DNA from: Vicugna vicugna
Lineage: Eukaryota
Direction of reading: 5' to 3'
DNA: 20,000 nt
NCBI GenBank assembly: GCA_013265495.1
Contig: MU057951.1
Location: forward strand, 137,175 to 157,174
Part shown: positions 1 through 20,000 of the stretch, in pieces
How positions within the stretch are numbered: the first letter of the stretch is position 1
Layout of the letters: the number at the start of each line of letters is the position of its first letter
Notes under the pieces: generated by a model
The model's database searches: none
What the model was told of the DNA's origin: nothing
What the model saw: only the letters and a program-made list of their open reading frames with translations
Position numbers and translations under genes: made by a program

Positions 1-1945
1 TCCAGTGTAGAGCACAATTTTTCAGTTATTCATGAACATATATATATATTCATTGTCATATTTTTTTCTCTGTGAGCTACCATAAGATCTTGTGCATATT
101 TCCCTGTGCTATACAGTATAATCTTGTTTATCTATTCTACAATTTTGAAATCCCATCTATTCCTTCCTACCCTCTGCCCCCTTGGCAATCCCAAATTTGT
201 ATTCTATGTCTATGAGTTTGTTTCTGTTTTGTGTTTATGTTTTCTTTGTTTTTGTTTTTTGATTCCACATATGAGTGATCTCACACGGTATTTTTCTTTC
301 TCTTTCTGGCTTACTTCACTTAGAATGACATTCTCCAGGAGCATCCATGTTGCTGCAAATGGCGTTATGTTGTCTGTTTTTATGGCTGAATAGTATTCCA
401 TTGAATAAATATACCACCTCTTCTTTATCCAGTCATCCGTTGATGGACATTTAGGCTGTCTCCATGTCTTGGCTATTGTAAATAGTGCTGCTATGAACAT
501 TGGGGTGCAGGTGTCATCCTGAAGTAGGGTTCCTTCTGGATACAAGCCCAGGAGTGGGATTCCTGGGTCAAATGTTAAGTCTATTCCTAGTCTTTTGAGG
601 AATCTCCACACTGTTTTCCACAGTGGCTGCACCAAACTGCATTCCCACCAGCAGTGTAGGAGGGTTCCCCTTTCTCCACAGCCTCTCCAGCATTTGTCAT
701 TTGTGGATTTTGGGATAATGGCAATTCTGACTGGTGTGAGGTGATACCTCATTGTAGTTTTGATTTGCATTTCTCTGATAATTAGTGATATTTAGTATTT
801 TCTCATGTGACCATTGATCATTTGTATGTCTTCCATGGAGAATTGTTTGTTTAGGTCTTCTGCCCATTTTTTGGAGTGGGTTGTTTCGTTGTTTCTTATT
901 AAGTCATATGAGCTGCTTATATATTTTGGATATCAAGCCTTTGTCGGTTTCATTTGCAAACATTTTCTCCCATTCCGTAGATTGTATTTTTGTTTTACTT
1001 ATGGTTTCCTTTGCTGTGCAGAAACTTGTAAGTTTCACTAGGTCCCATTTGTATTCTTGCTTTTATTTCTATTGCTTCCATAGACTGTTCTAGGAGAACA
1101 TTTTTGAGATGTATGTCAGATCATGTTTTGCCTATATTTTCTTCTAGGAGGTTGATTGTATCTTTTCTTCTTTTAAAGTCATTGATCCATCTTGAGTTGA
1201 TTTTTGTGTATGGTGTAAGGGAGTGTTCTAGCTTCACTGATTTACATGCTACTGTCAAGTTTTCCCAAAACTATTTGTTGAAGAGACTGTCTTTATTCCA
1301 TTGTATATTCTTAACTCCTTTGTCAAAAATGAGTTGAGCAAAAGTTTGTGGGTTCATGTCTGGGCTCTCTATTCTGTTCCATTGGTCTATATGTCTGCTT
1401 TTGTACCAATACCATGCTGTCTTGATGACTGTAGCTCTATAGTATTGTCTGAAGTTTGGGAGAGTTATTCCTCCAGTTTCTTTCTTTCTCTTCAGTAATT
1501 CTTTGGCAATTTTAGGTCTTTGATGGTTCCACATAAATTTTATTATGATTTGTTCTATTTCTGTGAAATATGCCCTGTGTAATTTGATAGGGATTGCATT
1601 AAATCTGTAGATTGCCTCGGGCAGTGTGACCATTTAAACAATATTGATTCTTCAAATCCAAGAGTATGGGATATCTTTCCGTTTTTTAAAGCCTTCTTTA
1701 ATTTCCTTCATCAATGGTTTATAGTTTTCTGTGTATAATTCTTTCACCTTCTTGGTTAAGTTTATTCTAGATATTTTACTACTTTGGGTGCTATTTTAAA
1801 GGGGATTGTTTCTTTACTTTCTTTTTCTGTTGATTCATAGTTAGTGTAAAGGAATGCAACTGATTTTTGAATGTTAATCTTGTAACCTGCTACCTTGCTG
1901 AGTTCTTCGATCAGCTCTAGTAGTTTTTGTGTTGAGCTTATAGGG
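1..1945 (-). mobile_element. Young 5'-truncated LINE-1: 3' part of ORF2 (from just after the RT FADD motif to the C-terminus) plus 3'UTR; 3' terminus lies left of the window
   Basis: Minus-strand ORFs 1271-1633 ([14 protein letters not shown]...[21 protein letters not shown]) and 210-770 ([15 protein letters not shown]...[29 protein letters not shown]...SLICGI) are typical L1 ORF2p C-terminal sequence; 1-260 is L1 3'UTR; minus-strand L1 similarity ends at about 1945 (gagcttataggg). Confidence 0.96.
210..770 (-). pseudogene. L1 ORF2p C-terminal cysteine-rich segment, open over 186 codons but part of a truncated element
   Basis: C-x3-C-x7-H-x4-C motif [18 protein letters not shown]; the usual stop after ICGI is absent so the frame runs into the A-rich 3'UTR. 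Confidence 0.9.
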
Positions 1946-2864: not shown

Positions 2865-4624
2865 ATAGAAAAAATTGTCATATTGATCAATTGAATAGTA
2901 TTGATAGTCCATAAACAAACTCCCCTGTATATTGTCAACTAATATTTGACAAGGAAGTCATGACTAATCAATGGTGAAATGATAGTCTCTTCAGTAAATG
3001 GTGGGGAGAAAACTAGATTACCATGTGCAGAAAAATGAAATCATATCCCTATCTTACACCACTAAGAAAAATCAACTAGAAATGGATTACAGATTTATTT
3101 GATACCTGAAACTTAAAACTCCTAGAAGAAAACAGGGAAAAAACTTTAAGACATTGGCCTTGGGGAAAAACTGATTTGACATCAAATGCACAAGCAATAA
3201 AGGCAAAAACCAATAAATAAAATTACATCCAACTAAGAAGCTTCTGCACAGCAATAAAACTAATCAATACAATGAACTAGCATCCTACTTAATTGGAGAA
3301 AATATTTCCAAGTCATATATTTGACAAAGCATTATTATCCAAAGTATGTTTTTAAAAACTCAGACAGCCTTCAGCAAAGAAAAGACTAAGTGTCTTCACT
3401 GATGTATTCTACCAAACATTTAAGGAAGCATTAGTATCAATCCTTAAACTCTTCCATAAAACAGAATAGCAAGAAAATTTTTAACTCAATTTTTGAAGTC
3501 AGCATTACTCTCATACCAAATTCATACAAGAACACTGCAAGAATACAAAAAATTATAGGTCAATATTCCTGATGAGCATAGATGCAAAGATTCTAAACAA
3601 AAGATAAAAATTTGAGTTTAACAATACATTAAAAATATCTTACACCATGATCAAGTGAGATTTATTTCTGCAATATTAGTCTGGCTCAAAATATTTAAAT
3701 TGATAAGTGTGACATACTACATTAACAAAATAAACTATAAAAATATTATCTAAATATATGCAGAAAAAAGCATTTGACAGAATTTAAGATCCTTCAATGA
3801 CAAGAACTCTCAAGAAATAACCTTGAAGAAATAAACCTTAACATAATAAAGGCAACATATGACAAGCCCAGATTTAACACCAAACTCAGTGTTGAAAAGC
3901 TGAAAGCATTTTTTCTAATATCAGAGCAAGACAAGGGTGAATAATCTCATTCTTTCCATTAAACATTATACTGGAAATCCTAGCAAGAGCAATTAGAAAA
4001 GAGAAAGAAACAAAATACATCTAAATTGAAAATAAAAATGTAAAATTGTCTCTGCAGTTGTCATAATTTTATATATAGAATATCTTAAACATTCCACTAA
4101 AACACTGTTAAAACTAATAAACAAATTCAGCAAAATTCAGGATGCTAAATCAACATTCAAGACAGTTTAATTTATATACACTAACACTATGTTATCTTGC
4201 CATATTAATAAAGCAAACCTATTTACTACAGCCTCAATAGCATCGAAAATAATATAATAGGTAGTAATAAATTTAACCAAGGAGGTAAAAAAATCTGTAA
4301 ATAAAAATTGTAAAAAATTGATTAAATAAATCTAGTAAGGCACAAATAAATGGAAAAACATCTTGTGTTCATGAAATGGAAAAATTAATTTGTTAAATTT
4401 TCCATTCTACTGAAAACAATATACAGACTCAATGGGATCCTTATGGAAATTTCAGGGGCATTATTTACAAAAATAGAAAAAAAGTAATTCTAAAATTTGT
4501 ATGCAAAAATACACCTTAAATAACTAAGAAAATCTAAAGCAAGAAAGACAAATCCAGCAGCCTCACACTTTTTTCCCTTTGAAGTATATTACAAAACTAT
4601 AGTAAATAAAAGAATAAAGTACAG

Positions 4625-5475
4625 AAGACATATAGATGACCAGCAGGTACAGGAAAAGATGCTCAACATTCCTAATTATTAGAGAATTGCAAATCAAAAC
4701 TGCAGTGAGGTACCATATCACCCCAGTAAGAATGGGCATCATCAAAATGTCTACAAATAATAAATGCTGGAGAGGCTATAGAAAAAAGGGTATTCTGCTA
4801 CACTGTTGGTGGGAATGTAAATTGGTGCAGCCACTATGGAGAACAGTATGGAGGTCCCTTAAATAACTAAACACAGAGTTACCATATGCTCTAGCAATCC
4901 TGGGCGTAGAGTTGGAAAAGATGAAAATTCTAGTTCAAAAAGATACACTCACCACAGTGTTCATAGCATCACTATTTGCAATAGTCAAGACATATAAACA
5001 ACCTAAATGTCCACTGAAAGATGAATGGATAAAGAAGATATAATATATATATTACACAATGGAATATTAGCCATAAAAAGAATGAAGTAATGTTATTTTC
5101 AACAACATGGATGGATCTAGAGATTATCATACTAAATGAAACCAAACAAAGACAGCTATTATATAATGTCTCTTATATGTGGAATCTAAAAAAAGGACAT
5201 AAATGAACTTATTTACAAAACAGAAATAGACTTGCCAACATAGAAAACAAGCTTATTACTGAAGGGGAAAGTGGTGGATAAATTAGGGATTTGGGATTAG
5301 CAGATACACACTGCTATATATAAAATAGATAGACAATAAGAACCTACCATATGGCACAGGAAGCTATATTCAGTATCTTGAAAGAACCTATCATGGGAAA
5401 GAATCTGATAATTATGAATCACTTTGCTGTGTACCTGAAACATTGCAAGTCAACTATACTTCAATAAATTAGAAA
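4625..5475 (+). mobile_element. Intermediate-age 5'-truncated L1 (ORF2 C-terminus plus cetartiodactyl-type 3'UTR) nested inside the 3368-6787 element
   Basis: ORF 4636-4866 [22 protein letters not shown]...CWRGY...[26 protein letters not shown] at 5463-5468 followed by a short A tail; imperfect flanking repeat aaaagaataaagtacag (4608-4624) / aaaagtatagtacag (5476-5490). Confidence 0.9.
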
Positions 5476-9170: not shown

Positions 9171-9919
9171 GTTCAGGACAAAAAAGCAGGAAGAATTAAA
9201 AAGAGGTTTCTGGGAAGATGGTGGAATAAGAAGCATCACAAGTCTATCTCCACCTAAACATAATTGCACTAACAGAATCTGTCTGATGTGACTCTTTTGG
9301 AACTTCAGAGAATATTGAAAGTTTGCAATTTCCAGATAAAGTCTTGGGCAGTGAGCTGCGATACATTTTGTTTAATATAACTCTTAGGATTGGAGTTAGT
9401 ATCCACCTCCTACCTCCATCCCCATGGAAGGAAGGAAGATGTGCATAATTTTCCATAGCAACTTGTATGACTCTGTCCTCCAAATATTCAGGAACTGTAC
9501 TCTGATTGCTGCTGGTGATTATAGAGATAAAGAAATTATGCAGATGATGATATCATTGTTGCAAGCTTCTTCCCATCAAGTTGAGTGACTTTCAGGATAT
9601 TTAAAGAGTTACCACATTCCCTTCCCCCACCTTTTTTTTTCTCTTTTGGGAGCCAGACATTAAAGACCAGAGCATCACAATAAACTGTATATGCAAAAAA
9701 TTAGGGCATGCCTCTGCATGCCCAGCAAAAGATTCAGAAACTTCTGAGAAGACATTAAATGTGCACCTCAGACTGATGCTCAGCACAGAGATAACCTATA
9801 AAAAAATTAAAGCCAATAATCAAAAACCATGAAAACCTCTAAACCTTAGAGAAGGGATATAATCTGATCTCTAAATATATAATATTAGATTTAAATATCC
9901 AGTTTTCAACAAGAAAATC

Positions 9920-10831
9920 ACAGGACATACAAAAAACAGGAAAGTATCACTCATTCAAAGGGAAAAATTAACTAAAACTGTCCCTGTAAAAGTTCTGATG
10001 GTAGCTATGTTTGACAAAAGACTTTAAACAACTGTCTGAAAGATGCTCAAAGAACTAAAGGAAGGTGTGGAGAATGTCAATCAAACAATGTATGAACAAA
10101 AAGGGAATATCAGTAAAGAAATATAAAAATTAAAAAGAAATCAAAGGAAATTCTGAAGCTGAAATATACAATACTTGAAATAAAAAATTCACTAGAGGAA
10201 ATATAAGGTAGATTTGTAAAAAGCAAAAGAAAGAATTCATGAATTTGAAGGTAGGACAATGAATATTATCAAGCCCGAAGAACAGAAAAAAAAAAAGACT
10301 GAAGAACAATGAACAAAATATAAGGAAATTGTGGGAAGCCATTAAGTAAATCAATACACATATTGTAGAAGTCATAAAAAGGAAACAAGAAAGAAAGAGG
10401 AAGAGAATATTTGAAAAAAATAATGGATAAATTGAAAATTTTGATGAAACACATGAATATAAACATTCAAGAACCTCAAAATTTATGAGTAAGATGAACT
10501 CAAAGAGACCCACAATGAGACATATTATATTTACTTCAAAACACAAAGGCAGATACTCTTCAAAGCAGCAAGAGAGAAGAAAATTTTTACAACATACATG
10601 GGATCCTTCATAAGATTATCATCATATTTTCATCAGAAACTTTGGAGACTAAAATGTAATGGGTTGATATGTTCAAATTACAAAAGAAAAAAAATGTCAA
10701 CAAGAATCCTATATCTGGTAAAAATTCCCTTCAAAAGTGGTGAAGAATTTAAGACATTTCTGGATAAACAAAAGCTGAGAGATTTTCTTACCACTATATT
10801 TTCCCTGCAGGGTGAAATAAAAGGATATTAA
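9920..10831 (+). pseudogene. Decayed L1 ORF1 of the 9205-15445 element
   Basis: gatgctcaaagaactaaagg, agacccacaatgagacatattata (RPT.RHII), aaagcagcaagagagaag (KAAREK), ORF 10598-10831 IRLSSYF...RILYLVKIPFKSGEEFKTFLDKQKLRDFLTT. Confidence 0.82.
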
Positions 10832-11389
10832 ATAGTAGCTTGAATGTGAGTAAGAAATAAAGACCTTGATAAAAGTAAATAGAGTATGTAAATAAAGGTA
10901 AAATCTAGTATTATTCTAACAATGGTTTGTAACTCCGCTTTTTGTTTTCTACATGATTTAAGGGATTAATACATTTAAAGACAAACTATATGTCTCAAAA
11001 CTGATATTGCAAGTGTTGTTTGTGTTTTATATAAGAGACTAAAGCAATTAAAAGAATTATTAGTTTATATTTTTGGCCCCACAGTATATAATGATATAAT
11101 AATGTGACATCAACTACTGAACTAGTGAAAGGGATGGGGTGAAATTGTAAAAGGCCAGAGTTTTTGTAGTATTATTGAAATCAAGTTGGTACAAATTCAA
11201 ATAAGAATGGTATAACTTTAGAATGTTAAAATATAATCCACTTGGTAACCAAAATGAAAAACACTATAGACTGCAGGGAAAATAAAATGAGAAAGAAATT
11301 TAAATATTTCACTACCCCAAAATCAACTGAACCCAAAGAACACAGTAATGCAAGACATAATTAACAAGAAAGCTATTAGAAACAAATAG

Positions 11390-14300
11390 CACAAAAACAG
11401 AAGTAACTCCTTCCATAACAGAATTACCTTAATGTAAACACATTTAATTCTTCAATTAAAAGACAGAGATTAACATATTGAATTAAGTCAGGTGATCCAA
11501 CAATATACTGTCTACAAGTGATTTACTTGAGACTCAAAACACAAATAGATAAAAATGTAAAGGACAGAAAAAAGCTATTCCATGCAACTAGTAACCAAAT
11601 GAGAGCAGGGGTTGCTATACTAATATTAGATGAAATAGATTTTAAATTAAAAAGACCACATGAGACAATGAATGTTATAAATTTTAAAAGACTTGAAAGA
11701 TCAAGAATATATAAAATTGCAAGCATTTATGCACCTAATGGCAAACCATATAAATACATGAAGCAAAAAGGGACAGAATGAAGGAGAGAAATTGACAGGT
11801 CTACAGTAATAACTGGAGACTTCAATACTCTACACAATACTAGAACAACAGCCAGAGAGAGGATATTAAGGAAGTAGAAGAATTAACACATAAATTAGCT
11901 ACATCTAGCAAACATATACAGAATATTCTACCCCAAAACAATAGCATGCCTTTCAAGTGTACATGGGACTTTCCCCAGGAGAGACAATGTTAGGCCATTA
12001 ATTAAATCTTAATAGATTAAAAAAATAGATGTCATACCAAACATCTTATCAAATCACAACAGGATAAAGTTAGTAATCAGTAACAGAAGTTAAACTGAAA
12101 CATTCACAAATTCGTGAAAATTAAACAAAACATGCAATAACCAATGGATTGAAAATGGAATAAAAAAATAAGAAAATATTTCAAGACAAGTGTATATGAA
12201 AACAGAACATGCCAAGGCTTATGGGACACAGTGAGTGCAGTGAGAGCTAAGAAATAAACTTTTTAGATTACATTTTAAAAAAGGAAGATCTCAAATCATG
12301 ACCTAAACTTACTTGAGGAAATAGACCTAACAAGGAAATAGAAAGAAAGAGTAAACTAAACCCAAGTATAACATAATAAAGGAAATAAATATTAGGTTAG
12401 AGATAAAAGGGTATCAAATATCAGAAAAATTGATAGAAACAAAAGTTGATTTTTTGAAAGATTGACAATAATTTAATTATTATTAACAATAAACAACAAA
12501 TTATTAGATAATAACAAATTATTAGAATAAGAGTAAAAGAGAGAACACTTATATTAGTAAACTTAGAAATGAAAATGGTGACTTATCTATGAATTCCACA
12601 TGCTTAAGGAGGATTATGAGTACTATGAATAATTGTACACCAAAAAATTGGAAAACCTAGAAAAAATGGACATATTCCTAGAAACAGAATTCTTACCAAG
12701 ACTAAATTATAAAAAAAATAGAATATCTGAGTAGACCTATAACTAGCAAGGAGTTTGACTTAATAACAAACAAGTTGCTAAAAAAGAAGTCCTGAACCAG
12801 ATGCATTAATTGAATGAAGTCAATCAAACATTTGAAAAAGAATTAACACCAATCATTCTCAAACTTTTTCAAAAAATTGAAGAGGAAAAAACATTTTATA
12901 GCTCATTCTATGAGGTCAACATTATTCTGATGCCACCAGACAAATTCACTAAAAGGAAAAAAAAACTATAGATCAATATCCTTTATGAATACTGAAGCAG
13001 AAATTCTAAGTAACATAATAGCAAACCAAATTCAGCAGCATATTAAAAGGATTATACACCACAATGAAGTAACATTTGTTCCTGGAATTCAAAGATTGTT
13101 TAATATACAAAAATCAATGTAATTCACCACATTAACTGAATGAAGGAAAAATGACATAATATTCTCAAATGATACAAAAAAAAGGATTTGACAAAATTCA
13201 GCTTTTCATGATTAAAAAATGAACAAATTAGATATAGAAAGAAACTATCTGAACATAATAAGAGCCATATCATGGAAAACCCAAAGCCTACAACATACTC
13301 AGTCTTAAAGCTTTTCCACTAAGATCAAGAACAAGGCAAGGATGACTATTTTCACCAATTTTATTCAACACAGTAATGGAAGTTCAAGTCAGAGGAATTA
13401 TGCAAGAAAAATAAATAAAAAACATACAAATTGGATAGGAACAAATAATTTTTTTCTGTTTTCAGATAATATGGTCCTATATGAAGAAAATCCTAAATAT
13501 TTAGCCAAAAATCTGTTAGAACTAATAACTAAATTGAACAAAGTAGCAGAACAAAAAGTCAATGTCAAAAATCAGTTGCATTCCTTCACACAAACAATGA
13601 ACAATCTGAAAAAACTTATGAAAATAATTCCATTTATAATAATGTCAAAAAGAATAAAATATTTAGGAATTAACTTAACCAAGGAAATAAATGACTTGTA
13701 TACTAAAAACCACAAAATATTGCTGGAAGAAATTAATGAAGACATAAGTAAACAAAACATCCCATGTTCATGCACTGGAAGACAAAATTAATAAGATGTC
13801 TATATTACCTAAAGTAATCTACAGACTTAATGAAATCTCTATAGAAAATTCCAATTACTTTTTGGCAGAAAAAAAAATCTTAAAATTCATACAGAATCTC
13901 AAAGGTCCTAAAATAGCCAAAACAATCTTGAACAGGAAGAACAAAGCTGGAGGTATCATACTTCCTGATTTCAAGTTATACCACAAAACAATAGTAATCA
14001 AAACAATATGTTACTGGCATAAAAATAGATGTTTAGACCAAAGTAATAGAATAGGGAGCCTAGAAAATAAACACACATATAAAGTCAAGTAGTATTTGAT
14101 GCACTGTCATGAATACACAATAGGAAAAGGATAGTCTTTTTGACATCTGATGCTGGGAAACCTGGATATCAAGGTCCAGTAGAATGAAGAGAGACTGATA
14201 CATAAAAATCTACTGAAAATAGAATAACAAATTTAAAATAACACCTGAAATCTTAAAATCATAAAAAGAGGGAAAAAGCTCCTTGATATTGGCCCTTGTA

Positions 14301-15105
14301 ATGATTTCTTGATATGACACAAAATCACAGGAAAAAAAAATAAACATATGGGACTACATAAATGAAGTCAATCCATGAATTGGGAGAAAATATTTGCAAA
14401 CCATATTTCTCATAGTGTTTAATATCCAAAATATATAAGGAATTTATACAACTGAATAGCAAAATCACAAATAACACAATTAAAATGAGCTAAGGACTTG
14501 AATAAATATTTTTCCAAAGACATACAAATAAGCAACAGGTATATAAAATGGTTCTCAACATAACTAATTGTCAGGGAAATGCAAATCAAAACCATAGTGA
14601 GATATCACCTCACACCTCTTAAGATGGCTATTGTCAAAAAGGAAAATAAAGATAACAGGTGTTGGCAAGGACACAGAGCAAAGGAATCCTTGTACACTCT
14701 TGGTAGGAATGTAAATACATATAGCCATTATAGGAAAGGTCTTCTTTATATGGAGGGTCTTGAAAAAAATAAAAATATAACTACATTTTGATCCAGTAAT
14801 TCCACTACTGGGTATATTTCCAAAGGGAAAAAAACACTATATTGAAAATATATATGCATTACTATGTTTATTGCAACATTACTCAGAGTAACCAAGGTAT
14901 GGTAACAAACTACGTGTCTATTGATGGATAACAGGTAAAGAATAAATTGTGACACACACACATAGTGGAATATTATTTATTCTCTAAAAAATTTAATCCT
15001 GCCACTTGCTACAACATGGGTAAATCAGAAGGGGATTATGCTGACTGAAATAATCCAGTCATAGAAAGAAAAAACTGCAGACCTCTCTTATATGTAGAAT
15101 CTACA
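11390..15105 (+). pseudogene. Decayed L1 ORF2 (APE endonuclease, reverse transcriptase, Cys-rich C-terminus)
   Basis: ORF 11518-11781 RAGVAILILDEIDFK...IYAPN; ggagacttcaatactc (GDFNT); ORF 13342-13791 FSDNMVLYEENPK (degenerate FADD) and IKYLGINLTKE; ORF 13796-14092 LPKVIYRLN...YWHKNR; ORF 14579-14791 MQIKTIVRYHLTP. Numerous stops and frameshifts. Confidence 0.92.
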
Positions 15106-16658
15106 ATAGTGGAATTCAAAGAAATAGATGGTAAAATTGTGGTTGCCAGGGCCTGGGGAATGGGGAAAATGAGGATGCATTGGTCAAAGGATAAAGAGTT
15201 TTAGTTATGTAGAATAAATAAGCTGGAGAGTTTTAATGCACAGTATGGTACAATAGTTAACAATACTGTACTGCATAATTAAAATTTACTGAATGTAGAT
15301 TTTAAGTGTTTTCTTAAAAATGATATGTATGTGAAGTGATGGATATATTAATCAACTTGACTGGTAATAATCATCACAATGATTATATATCAAAATATGT
15401 TGTACATCATATATATATATACAAATTTTATAAAAATAAAATATTTCATAAATTTAAGGCAGCAATTGATAGTTTGCAATAATACTTGGGACAGACTTAA
15501 ATACACAACATTAAAATGAATAGAACAGGGAAGAGAAGCAAGATGGCAGAGTAGAAGGACACTTATAGCTCACCCTCTCCCACAAATACACCAAAACTCA
15601 CATCTACGGACCCACTTAGCCAACCAGAGCACCTTTGGAACTCCGACAGAACATTGCCCTCTTTGAAAGATGAAGATGCCAAAAACCTGGTAGGAGAAAA
15701 GGAAAAAGAAAGAAGAAAAAGCAAAACAGTGCAGGATCGGCCCTGTGGGGAGGGAGTGGCAAAGAAGGTATAGTGCTTGTTCACTGGGTCTCCTCCCTTC
15801 AATGGAGAGGCCAACAGGATGGAGGGGGAGCCTCCGAGGCTCAGATCTGCCCCAAGCACCCCTTGACTGACAGAACTAAGTTAAGTAGGCACAAAGGTTC
15901 CCTGCGACACCCAGCCCGAGATGCAAGCCGGCAGCTGGGGGCTGGGGCAGGCTGCCTGAGCTGGGCAGAGGACTGGAGCGGCTGCATTGAGGCAGCCCCA
16001 GGGGACTACAGGGTACTGCATGCCATGGCTGGGAGGTGATAAAGAGCAGAACAACATCGGTCTTCGATAAATTGTGAAAATAGCAAAGCAACACGGCTGA
16101 TGTGCCCTGGGGGGAGGGGCACCATAGCCTTTGTCTCCTCAGACCCGAGGTGCCATTACTGGAGCTTCTAGCGAGTAGAGAGGTGGGGCCTAGCCACAGC
16201 CGCCATATCCTCCTGTGCAAAGTGCCTGGGTGGGGGCAGGGCCAAGACCTGTATCTGTATGGGGCAGAGGGACTCCTCAACCTCCTAGGCAAGACTGAGA
16301 CATGTTTACAGCCCGAGGCTGAAAGAATCTTTCTGCCCTGGCACCTCAGAGAACTCACACCGCCAAGACAAACAAGGAGCTGAGATTTCACACAGAGCAG
16401 GGGCGGGGCTGTTCCTGCAGTCTTCCCTGAGCCTGCCTAAGGAGCACCTACCTGAAGCAGAGCAGGCAGCTGCACAGAGCAGCAGAGCAACTGATGCCAG
16501 GAGAGGGCGGCAGCCACCTGCCTTCCTGGCAGGAATGCAGCACCTGACCATGGTGCTGGTAGGGGGCATGATCCGCCCACCTGCCTCGCCCTAGCACAAC
16601 ATCTGAATGCGACACCGGGAGGGGGAGTGACCCACTCGCCCACCTATGCCAGAGAGAT

Positions 16659-17345
16659 ATGAGCAATATGTAGAAGCAGAGGAACCACTCCCAAATAAAA
16701 GATCAATAGAAATCCCCTGAAAGCACAATCAAGGAAATAGACATTGATGGCCTACTAGATCAAGATTTCACAAAAGGACTAATCAAAGTACTGAAAGAAC
16801 TAAAATAAATAGTGTTTAGAGATATAAAATATGTCAAAAATGAAATAGAAGCTCTTAAAAAGAACCAACTAGAATTAGTAAACTCATTTGTTGAGATGAG
16901 AGCTGATCTAAAGGCTGTGCAAAGCAGAGTAGATAATGCAGAGGAACAAATAAGTTACCAGGAAGACAGGACTACAGGAAGCACCCAATCAGAACAACTG
17001 AGAGAAAAAAAAATAAAAAACAATGAAAGCAATATAAGGGACATATGGGCTAAGATAAATCATGCCAATCTACACATAATAGGGGTTTCAGAAGGGGAAG
17101 AAAAAACTAAAGGGCTTCAAAAGGTATTTGAAGAAATCATGACTGAAAACTTCCCAAACCTAAAAGAAGGAATCAAATATCCAAGTACAGGAGGCTCAGA
17201 GGGTCCCAAACAGGAAGAACCCAAACAGACCCACACCAAGACATATCATAATCAAGATGGCCAGAGTCAAGGATAAAGAAATGATCCTAAAGCATTTAGC
17301 AACACTAAACCCATACTAAAAGAAATATTGACAGGTCTACTCTAA
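16659..17345 (+). pseudogene. Disrupted L1 ORF1
   Basis: ATG AGC AAT ATG TAG (early stop); ORF 16812-17276 with coiled coil and ANLHIIGVSEGEEK...FEEIMTENFPNL; frameshift near 17165; internal deletion near 17293; ends FSNTKPILKEILTGLL* (TAA 17343-17345). Confidence 0.9.
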
Positions 17346-17486
17346 ATAGAAAAGAAGCAGGACGCTACAAAAATGAAAAACTCATAACTGAAAAGGTGAT
17401 AACTACCATGAATTACAAATACAATAAACACAAAATTGTAAAAGAAGGCATCTAAATCATTAAGAGTGGGAGAGGAAAGCAAGGAA

Positions 17487-17855
17487 AGCCACTGTGGAAA
17501 ACAGTATGGAGAGTCCTTAAAAGGCTAGGAATAGTCTTACCATATGACCCAGGAATCCCACTCCTGGGCATATATCCAGAAGGAAGCCTACTTCAAAATG
17601 ACACATACACCCCAATGTTCATAGCAGCACTATTTACAATAGCCAAGACATGGAAACAGCCTGTGCCCATCAACAGATGACTGGATAAAGAAGATGCGGT
17701 GTATTTTTAGAGTGGAATACTATTCAGCCATGAAAACTGACAACATAAAACCATTTGAAGCAACACGGATGTTCCTGGAGGGTGTCATTATAGGTGAAGT
17801 GAGCCAGAAAGGGAAAGAGAAGTCCTGTGTGAGATCTCTTATATGTGCAATCTAA
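17487..17855 (+). pseudogene. Terminal about 120 codons of L1 ORF2 only
   Basis: [32 protein letters not shown]...[17 protein letters not shown]...ICAI*; colinear and highly similar to the reverse complement of 260-630. Confidence 0.9.
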
Positions 17856-17904
17856 AAAAAACAAAACAAACAACAACAACAACAAAACATAAATACAGAT
17901 CATT

Positions 17905-19140
17905 CCGGGCAAGATGGCGGAGTAGAAGGACGCTTGTAAGTCACCCTCTCCCACAAATAAACCAAGACCCACATCTACAGACCCACTCAGACAACCAGAG
18001 CACCTGCGGAACTCCAACAGATCATCGCCCTCTTCAAAAGATAAAGACGCCAAAAATCTGGTAGGAGAAAAGGAAAAAAGAAAGAACAAAAGGCAAAGCA
18101 GCGTGGGACGGGTCCCGCGAGGAGGGAGCGGCAAAGGAGGACTGGCGCTTGCTCGCTGGGTCTCCCCTCTCCAATTGAGAGGCCAGCGGGACGGAGGGGG
18201 AGCCTCCAAGGCTCGGATCTGTACAGAGCAGCCCTTCTCTGACAGAACTAAGTTAAACAGGTACAGAGCGTACCCCCGACACCCAGTCTGAGACGCGGGC
18301 CGGCAGCGGCGGGCAGGGCCAGGCTGCACAAGCCGGGTGGAGGACGGGGGCGGCTGCACGGAGACAGCTCCAGGGGACTGCAAGGGGCTGGGGGCCGGGG
18401 CTGTGGGTGTACAGGACAGAACAACCTGGGCCCTCCATAAAACAGCAAGGTTGATGTGCTCTCGGGGGAAGGGTGCATAACCCCATCTCTGAAAACCCAC
18501 GGAAACTTTTCAGGGGAAGAGGGGCGGGGCCCAGGCAGAGCCGCCATATTCTCCGGCGCTTAGAACCCAGGCGGGGGCAGAGGCGAAACCTGCATCCGCA
18601 CCGAAGGGCTTAGCAGCCTCAAGGGACAGACTGAGACGGGCCTACAGCCCTCGGCAGATAGGATCCTTCCATTCTGGTCCCCCAGAGAACTTGGTCCACA
18701 AAGACAAACAAGCAGCTGGGTCTTGGCTCGGAGCAGGGATGAGGCTGCCCCTTGGTCTTCCCCAAGCCCACCCGCGGAGTGCGACCAGGGCGGAGCGCCG
18801 ACCAGGGCGGAGCGCGACCAGGGCGGAGCGCCGACCAGGGCGGAGCGCCCGCGCAGAGCGCAAAGCCGAACAGAGCAGCGGAGCTACCGGTGGCGCAGGC
18901 AGGGGCAGAGCGGCCGCCCGCCTGTCAGGCAGGAACACAACCCCTGACCGAGGTGCTGGGAGGGGGCACGACCCGCCCTCCTGCCTGGCCAGTCTGCAAC
19001 ATCTGACTGCGGCATACGGAGGGGCAGTGACCCGCCCACCCGCAGCAGAAGACAGCTGCATCTGACCCCGGGTTAGGAGGAGGCGCGATCTGCTTGCCAA
19101 CAGGTGCTGGGAGCAGCACAGAAGAGGGCGCCAACGGAGG
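17905..19140 (+). promoter_or_regulatory. CpG-island-like internal Pol II promoter of L1 5'UTR
   Basis: Visibly GC- and CpG-dense relative to the AT-rich window; YY1 motif CAAGATGGCGG at 17910-17920; several GGGCGG GC boxes (18522, 18788-18843). Confidence 0.8.
18782..18848. repeat. Four tandem copies of CGACCAGGGCGGAGCG(C) (17,16,17,17 bp)
   Basis: Units at 18782-18798, 18799-18814, 18815-18831, 18832-18848, identical apart from one C. Confidence 0.95.
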
Positions 19141-19235
19141 GCCTATGAAAACAAGCTGAGCTTCCAAAACAGGACGAAGACAGAAGGACATCACAATAAA
19201 AGCACACACACTCCAGGAGAACACCGACAACCCCC

Positions 19236-19307
19236 TTTTTTTGTTTGTTTTTTTTTTGTTTTGTTTTTTTGTTTTTTTGTTTTTTGTTTTTGTTTTTGTT
19301 GTTTTTT
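19236..19307. repeat. Low-complexity (GTTTTT)n-like tract within L1 5'UTR
   Basis: tttttttgtttgttttttttttgttttgttttttt...gtttttgttgttttt. Confidence 0.85.
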
Positions 19308-19714
19308 ATAATCTGTTTTTACCTGTTCTATTTTCAATTACTCTCTTAATTTTTACTTCTTAATTCATTTTTATTTCTCTTGGGTTTTGATGTCCTGTTA
19401 TTGATTAGACACAGGCTTCAAACACATATATTCATCTCCCCACCCCCCCTTTTTTTTTAAAGGTTTTAAAAGGACGTCTCCACCCGATTAATACTCTGCT
19501 TCAACCCGCTCTTCTATTATTCATTATACATTGTTTTCAAACCCTCTGTCTCCCTTCTTTTAAAAATCTTTCTCTCTCTTTCTTATTTTTTTCTCTTTTT
19601 TTATTTCTTTTTTATTTTTTTCTAAGTTTATTCCTAAATAAGCATTAGATAGATAATATCCTTAAGATCCAAAATAGACAACTGATACTCCATAAACCAC
19701 AGTGCCAGAGAGGT

Positions 19715-20000
19715 ATGAGCAAGATGAAGAAGCAGAGAAACCTTTCCCAATTAAAAGAACAAGAGGAATCCCCTGAAAGAAAGATCAANNNNNNNNNNNN
19801 NNNNNNNNNNNNNNNNNNNNNNNNNNNNNNNNNNNNNNNNNNNNNNNNNNNNNNNNNNNNNNNNNNNNNNNNNAAATATGTCAGAAATTGAAGCTATAAA
19901 GAAGAGCCAAGCAAAATGGGAAAACTCATTGACAGAGATGAGGAATGATCTAACAGCGGTGCAAAGCCGACTAGTTAATGCAGAGGAACGAATCGAATTA
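19715..20000 (+). pseudogene. L1 ORF1 N-terminus, partial, spanning an assembly gap; apparent 5-bp frameshift near 19885
   Basis: MSKMKKQRNLSQLKEQEESPERKI then N-run, then KYVRN / EAIKKSQAKWENSLTEMRNDLTAVQSRLVNAEERIEL, aligning to the 16659-16960 ORF1 copy. Confidence 0.8.
19789..19873. other. Assembly gap (85 N)
   Basis: Run of N; the homologous interval in the other ORF1 copy (16733-16826) is 94 nt, so the gap is roughly the expected size. Confidence 0.98.

Follow-up and report, generated by a model that had tools for sequence, protein, structure and literature searches.

The window, the whole 20,000-nt stretch of DNA analysed here, consists almost entirely of mammalian LINE-1 (L1) DNA of mixed ages. 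One of these elements, which we designate A (15528–17897), lacks ORF2, keeps its 5′ start intact and has three true internal gaps. Our best reading, to which we give a probability of about 0.4, is that A is a trans-mobilised copy of an L1 template that had already been shortened in a HAL1-like manner. The gap junctions in the 5′UTR, ORF1 and ORF2 of A are referred to as J1, J2 and J3, respectively; B is the L1 from 17898 onward, and D is a minus-strand L1 at 60–1940.

Structure of element A

The pieces of A (Table 1) are all collinear, and its complete 5′ start adjoins an endonuclease-type site. A first-pass annotation of this DNA had placed a full 5′ start beside a TT/AAAA site, and A indeed begins at 15528, just after tt|aaaatgaatagaaca at 15513–15527; this motif occurs once, and a motif search found no second copy within the window. 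Among LINE-1 features, the ORF1p trimerization and RRM domains (PF17489 and PF02994 matches on pieces of the window) and the L1-type ORF2 C-terminus with 3′UTR (86% identity to D over 409 nt) are present in A. Its ORF1 carries three stops and a frameshift near 17170.

Table 1. Features of A and of the L1 that interrupts it
Feature	Position	Strand	Basis
Candidate left TSD of A, after TT|AAAA endonuclease-type site	15513..15527	+	Sequence, motif search
5′UTR of A, CpG-decayed, J1 at about 16646/16647	15528..16658	+	Alignment to B
ORF1 remnant of A, P0008/P0135-type subfamily, J2 at 17287–17295	16659..17345	+	tblastn, Pfam
Sequence past ORF1 stop, 143 bp, read as truncated inter-ORF spacer	17346..17488	+	Position; not ORF2
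ORF2 end, last ~121 codons, one 2-bp frameshift, natural stop	17489..17855	+	Alignment
3′UTR of A, first ~40 bp, interrupted by B	17856..17897	+	Alignment to L1 at 190–1100 (minus)
Element B, L1, P0001-type ORF1 subfamily, nested in 3′UTR of A, runs off the window	17898..20000	+	Sequence, alignments

The three junctions

The 5′UTR of A is 77–83% identical to that of B overall, with 76% identity between A 16510–16641 and B 18910–19041 and 85% between A 16647–16732 and B 19703–19788. Between these blocks, four best placements of the J1 breakpoint are tied, each dropping 660 bp of B (19039–19042 joined to 19700–19703), in agreement with the roughly 660 bp of 5′UTR that had been reported missing. 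The gap corresponds to B 19043–19702, and since B belongs to a different ORF1 subfamily, this 660-bp figure is relative to a cousin and not to A's own parent, so that it could reflect either loss in A or gain in the lineage of B. On either side of the gap, B carries a CCAC repeat that is out of register by one base; in-register 4-mers are found by chance in 1.8% of random pairs. The right arm of J1 starts straight after CAG in B. No GT donor lies within 14 bases of the left break in B, the nearest GT being at 19027 and 19072, and GC..AG placements in the B sequence have lower scores and poor context. It is nonetheless conceivable that J1 is a splice whose donor exists only in the subfamily of A.

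When the full 300-residue ORF1p P0001 was used as a tblastn query, residues 1–211 matched through 17292 and the match restarted with residue 285 at 17295. The gap at J2, annotated earlier as about 0.2 kb of ORF1 near 17293, thus amounts to 72 codons (P0001 residues 213–284) at 17287–17295, plus one extra base. Pfam places the RRM of P0001 at 135–231 and its CTD at 235–297, so J2 removes most of the CTD together with the end of the RRM. P0135, which shares the KEMILK motif of A, reads ILKAAREK at the left of J2 and KLKEFSNTKP at the right. Judged from these protein sequences, the break would sit on an in-register Leu-Lys repeat, and a crossover at this repeat together with the loss of one A from a run could yield the sequence of A at J2. 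In 163 of the 195 ORF1 proteins compared, ARE continues after the IL.A motif. In the closest relatives, Ala-Ala or Ala-Ser follows the left arm, and with these residues no placement of the break exposes a GT; an AG acceptor at the right break depends on the codon used for a Glu, a residue known from protein only. P0059 and P0124 both read MILNAFRQEK; compared with the remaining relatives, they have one extra residue precisely where J2 breaks on the left and A has KAF. P0059 (217 residues, 71% coverage) was also considered as an ORF1 with the J2 cut itself and was rejected, its cluster mate P0124 running on into the segment missing from A.

At J3, identity to the ORF2 end of D (window 628–262, minus strand) begins abruptly at 17487, with 91% over 176 nt and 86% over 409 nt. 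The earlier claim that inter-ORF sequence is joined to the ORF2 end at 17487–17489 therefore holds, and the endonuclease (EN) and reverse transcriptase (RT) are absent. A full L1 ORF2 measures roughly 3.8 kb, of which 367 nt are left in A. We rejected diverged ORF2 as the origin of the 70 bases left of J3, which aligned to ORF2 no better than shuffles (420 of 1000 scored as high); homology between the spacer of A and that of the old L1 likewise lacked significance, with 398 of 500 shuffles reaching its score. The final two bases of the spacer, AG, are common to both arms of J3. The right arm starts straight after CAG in the reference L1, and the left arm closes with AAG, which makes a good exon end. 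The frequency of CAG is 3.2% and 2.2% of positions, and is higher if several placements are allowed.

Age of A and its relation to B

A had been described as a young copy, which its CpG decay and its three ORF1 stops contradict. The CpG observed/expected ratio is 0.26 in A versus 0.63 in the matched part of B; 32 CpG sites retained in B are lost in A, and 6 show the reverse. Decay of A amounts to about 4–7% and is alike on either side of J2 and of J3. The ORF1 part has 19 private residues in 207 columns, and the ORF2 remnant has 25 specific bases in 364, compared with 14 in D. The two parts contain 3 and 0 stops, respectively, where 1.6 and 1.0 are expected at 7% divergence. They are of compatible age, which in itself does not prove a single insertion.

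B comprises a 5′UTR at 17898–19714 and an ORF1 from 19715, inside which lies an 84-N assembly gap (19790–19873) that is matched by a stretch of about 95 bp in A. It had been treated as a sister copy of A. The ORF1 of A is closer to P0008 (171 of 210 residues identical, 81%) than to P0001 (158 of 210), whereas the two ORF1 pieces of B match P0001 at 92% and 84% identity but P0008 at 67% and 64%. A and B thus represent different ORF1 subfamilies, and B is not a true sister.

The match of A to the 3′UTR of D ends after about 40 bp, exactly where B starts, and the 14 bases ahead of B (17884–17897) fit a candidate left TSD of B. We infer from this arrangement that B, the younger element, inserted into the 3′UTR of A. 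The element had been annotated earlier as running to 17900; A stops at 17897, and B begins at 17898. Given the nesting, the poly(A) and second TSD of A lie past the end of the window.

B contains further a GC-rich 17-bp tandem array at 18774–18849 that is absent from A, long T-rich tracts at 19236–19621, and a CAG|GT donor-like site at 18261 (window 18258–18266), about 1.44 kb upstream of the CAG (19700–19702) that precedes the right arm of J1.

Search for further copies and relatives

We compared 244 ORF1 proteins, which include the best 120 of 5359 matches and the best 120 of 7427 matches. The J2 join was present in none of the 223 that have the upstream anchor. A lineage-type motif was found in 7 proteins, none of which has the J2 join; P0197 and P0230, which by their sequence probably belong to another lineage, were set aside, leaving P0001, P0008, P0059, P0124 and P0135 (four of them independent) with a count of 0/5. 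As a protein proxy, these counts say only that copies with J2 would not form a large majority.

Viral, metagenome and GTDB contigs scanned by protein pattern gave 6, 177 and 266 candidate stretches, respectively, none of which was confirmed as a relative. A search of sequencing runs listed 20 entries from 9 studies under four organism labels, with 0.41–0.51 of 224 sampled words present, which says nothing on the junctions or on this locus. DNA-pattern scans of the same collections gave 10, 1 and 0 loci, and as none of these 11 loci aligns to the window at an E-value of 1e-6, they represent chance matches. The literature searched contained neither a camelid HAL1 nor a camelid L1 with the structure of A; a camel TE repeat library may already include such an element. 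The term HAL1 does not occur in the main text of PMC8605555, and PMC6726744 has it once, as a match to a bat family.

Origin of the gaps

Three gaps of 0.2 to more than 3 kb in a copy that keeps both ends and has decayed by about 4–7% contrast with an older neighbouring L1, which is 31% diverged from the reference L1 and has no single gap longer than 13 bp in 1.6 kb aligned. This comparison makes it likelier that A inherited its gaps than that it acquired them. In the scenario that we favour, an L1 of the P0008/P0135 type would have lost ORF2, and probably also the CTD of ORF1, through internal deletions guided by short homologies, with the 5′ promoter and the 3′ end being kept. An intact L1 would then have supplied the ORF2p that copied the RNA of this shortened template in trans, with target-primed reverse transcription placing the copy at 15513, at the TT|AAAA site. 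J1 could have arisen by another deletion or by splicing into the CAG that lies shortly before ORF1. The inserted copy would have decayed before the younger B entered its 3′UTR. Both the trans-mobilisation and the existence of further copies of A are inferred from the structure of the element. The Leu-Lys repeat at J2, the AG common to both arms of J3 and the compatible ages of the parts support a shortened template. Counting against it, no second copy of J1, J2 or J3 was seen (for J2, by the protein proxy, 0/223), and nested insertions, which can mimic deletions, are common in the window.

The gaps may instead all be private to this locus, having arisen by template jumps at short homologies on a full-length RNA or by later losses during microhomology-mediated repair. 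We regard this as unlikely, though well worth weighing. It agrees with the failure to see a second copy (0/5 in the same lineage by the protein proxy), with the short homologies at the junctions (the Leu-Lys repeat at J2, AG at J3 and, one base out of register, CCAC at J1) and with an age of A sufficient for decay; a scan that seeks oddities also favours rare one-off copies. It would, however, require three large independent losses where the older neighbour has none in its 1.6 kb aligned. Moreover, the internal deletions reported for new L1 insertions in tumours are tied to 5′ inversions and are short, with a median of 14.5 bp (bioRxiv 10.1101/2024.08.27.596794), whereas A has no inversion. 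Since it is unusual for one copy to have three large gaps, the shortened template stays the leading reading.

An explanation overlooked by the first-pass annotation is that J3 is the 5′ end of a nested same-strand 5′-truncated L1. In this case J3 would not be a deletion; 17487–17897 would be a separate insertion in the spacer of a doubly deleted L1. The remaining spacer and ORF2 of this host would then lie downstream of B, past the window. Such a structure does exist at 4624–5473, and B itself is nested in A. Since the nest at 4624–5473 looks like an internal deletion when seen from the left alone, J3 could be of the same kind. Truncated L1s typically have a short shared sequence where their 5′ end joins the target, and so has J3. 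A TSD of the usual length, however, would put the nick at AG|GAAA or GG|AAAG, which are poor endonuclease sites, and the sole good site, TT|AAGA, requires a 27-bp duplication. The compatible ages of the two parts also speak against nesting, which in addition leaves J1 and J2 unexplained. On balance we consider it improbable.

Very unlikely, in our view, is a triple SpIRE, in which the spliceosome took all three segments out of a full-length L1 RNA before its retrotransposition in trans. As splicing would have it, CAG directly precedes the right arm at both J1 and J3, and AAG closes the left arm at J3. Against this, B offers no GT within 14 bases of the left break of J1 (although B is not of A's own subfamily), no placement of J2 gives a GT with the flanking residues found, and the two testable acceptors have no strong pyrimidine tract (50% and 35%). 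Weak GC donors could rescue the idea, as could the fact that the GT test used relatives and not the parent DNA of A. Of the two sources proposed in the first-pass annotation, a shortened master thus leads, three gaps in one copy being unusual, while a processed RNA is contradicted by J2 and finds no J1 donor in B.

Misassembly, with different L1 copies wrongly joined in a gapped assembly of short reads, is a highly improbable cause of one or more junctions: although an 84-N gap lies 1.9 kb away and the window is nearly all L1, decay is similar on the two flanks of J2 and J3, and the junctions share just 0–9 bases, presumably far below assembly overlaps.

Comparison with known non-autonomous elements

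HAL1 elements are non-autonomous L1 derivatives that encode only ORF1p and have several origins in mammals, as described in sections of PMC5753468. As in HAL1, the L1 5′ end and ORF1 of A are joined to an L1 3′ end, ORF2 is missing, and ORF2p would be needed in trans (sections of PMC5753468 and PMC5786205). The absence of the ORF2 endonuclease and reverse transcriptase holds for A unless J3 is a nested insertion. In contrast to A, HAL1s encode ORF1p and form multi-copy families; a complete ORF1p is absent from the A copy, which retains two-thirds of ORF1 without the 72 codons and still has ~121 ORF2 codons, and a single copy is known. With its ORF1 incomplete and one copy known, A is not filed as a HAL1; it is HAL1-like, a known kind of element.

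SpIREs, human L1s retrotransposed from spliced RNA (Larson et al. 2018), resemble A in having a full 5′ start, a 5′UTR deletion that ends just past an AG near the ORF1 start, and an endonuclease-type site (sections of PMC5860796). They are, however, splices within the 5′UTR or between 5′UTR and ORF1 with ORF2 intact (same sections), whereas A has three gaps and no ORF2, and neither of the left breaks open to testing (J1 in B, and J2 by residues) has a GT donor. On this donor test, A would not be a SpIRE.

The same-strand nest at 4624–5473 shares with J3 an abrupt jump from farther upstream in the L1 to the 3′ end of ORF2 and a short shared sequence. It differs in that the host resumes there with a duplication, while for J3 the region in question lies past the window.

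Bipartite ORF-absent LINE derivatives such as RIME, NARTc and Bov-A keep both LINE ends after loss of internal sequence and have no functional protein (PMC5786205). In that 2018 survey, the clades with such derivatives are RTE, Ingi, Vingi and R2, and no protein-less derivative is listed for the L1 clade; A, unlike RIME, NARTc or Bov-A, keeps two-thirds of an ORF1. It is unlikely, but conceivable, that A is one of many copies of an undescribed non-autonomous L1 family, made from a template without ORF2 and without the RNA-binding CTD of ORF1p. Such a protein-less element would have spread as a Pol II-driven, SINE-like L1 parasite, the RNA of which may also have been spliced into the CAG acceptor before ORF1. 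If true, a protein-less L1 family would contradict the view that HAL1-type L1 derivatives need their own ORF1p, and also the view that RTE, Ingi, Vingi and R2 are the sole sources of protein-less bipartite LINE derivatives. Should the junctions recur, they would show that half-L1 families have arisen independently once more and would provide a natural test of the need for an own ORF1p; amplification of the family after loss of the CTD would mean that it is not needed. If the junctions are private or J3 is nested, A is an ordinary genome scar.

Other L1s in the window

Directly upstream of A lies an old, apparently full-length L1 (about 9200–15100), with an ORF1 remnant at about 9950–10830 and an ORF2 end 69% identical to D. 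D itself (60–1940, minus strand) is a fairly young 5′-truncated L1, antisense to and beside older plus-strand L1 ORF2 fragments. Within an old L1 ORF2, 2552–2875 is made up of tandem units of 7/14/21 bp. At 4624–5473, an older L1 hosts a 5′-truncated L1 in the same orientation, with a ~14-bp duplication. In D coordinates, the host breaks off at 531, the insert begins at 1108, and the host restarts at 518, an arrangement that from the left mimics a 577-bp internal deletion.
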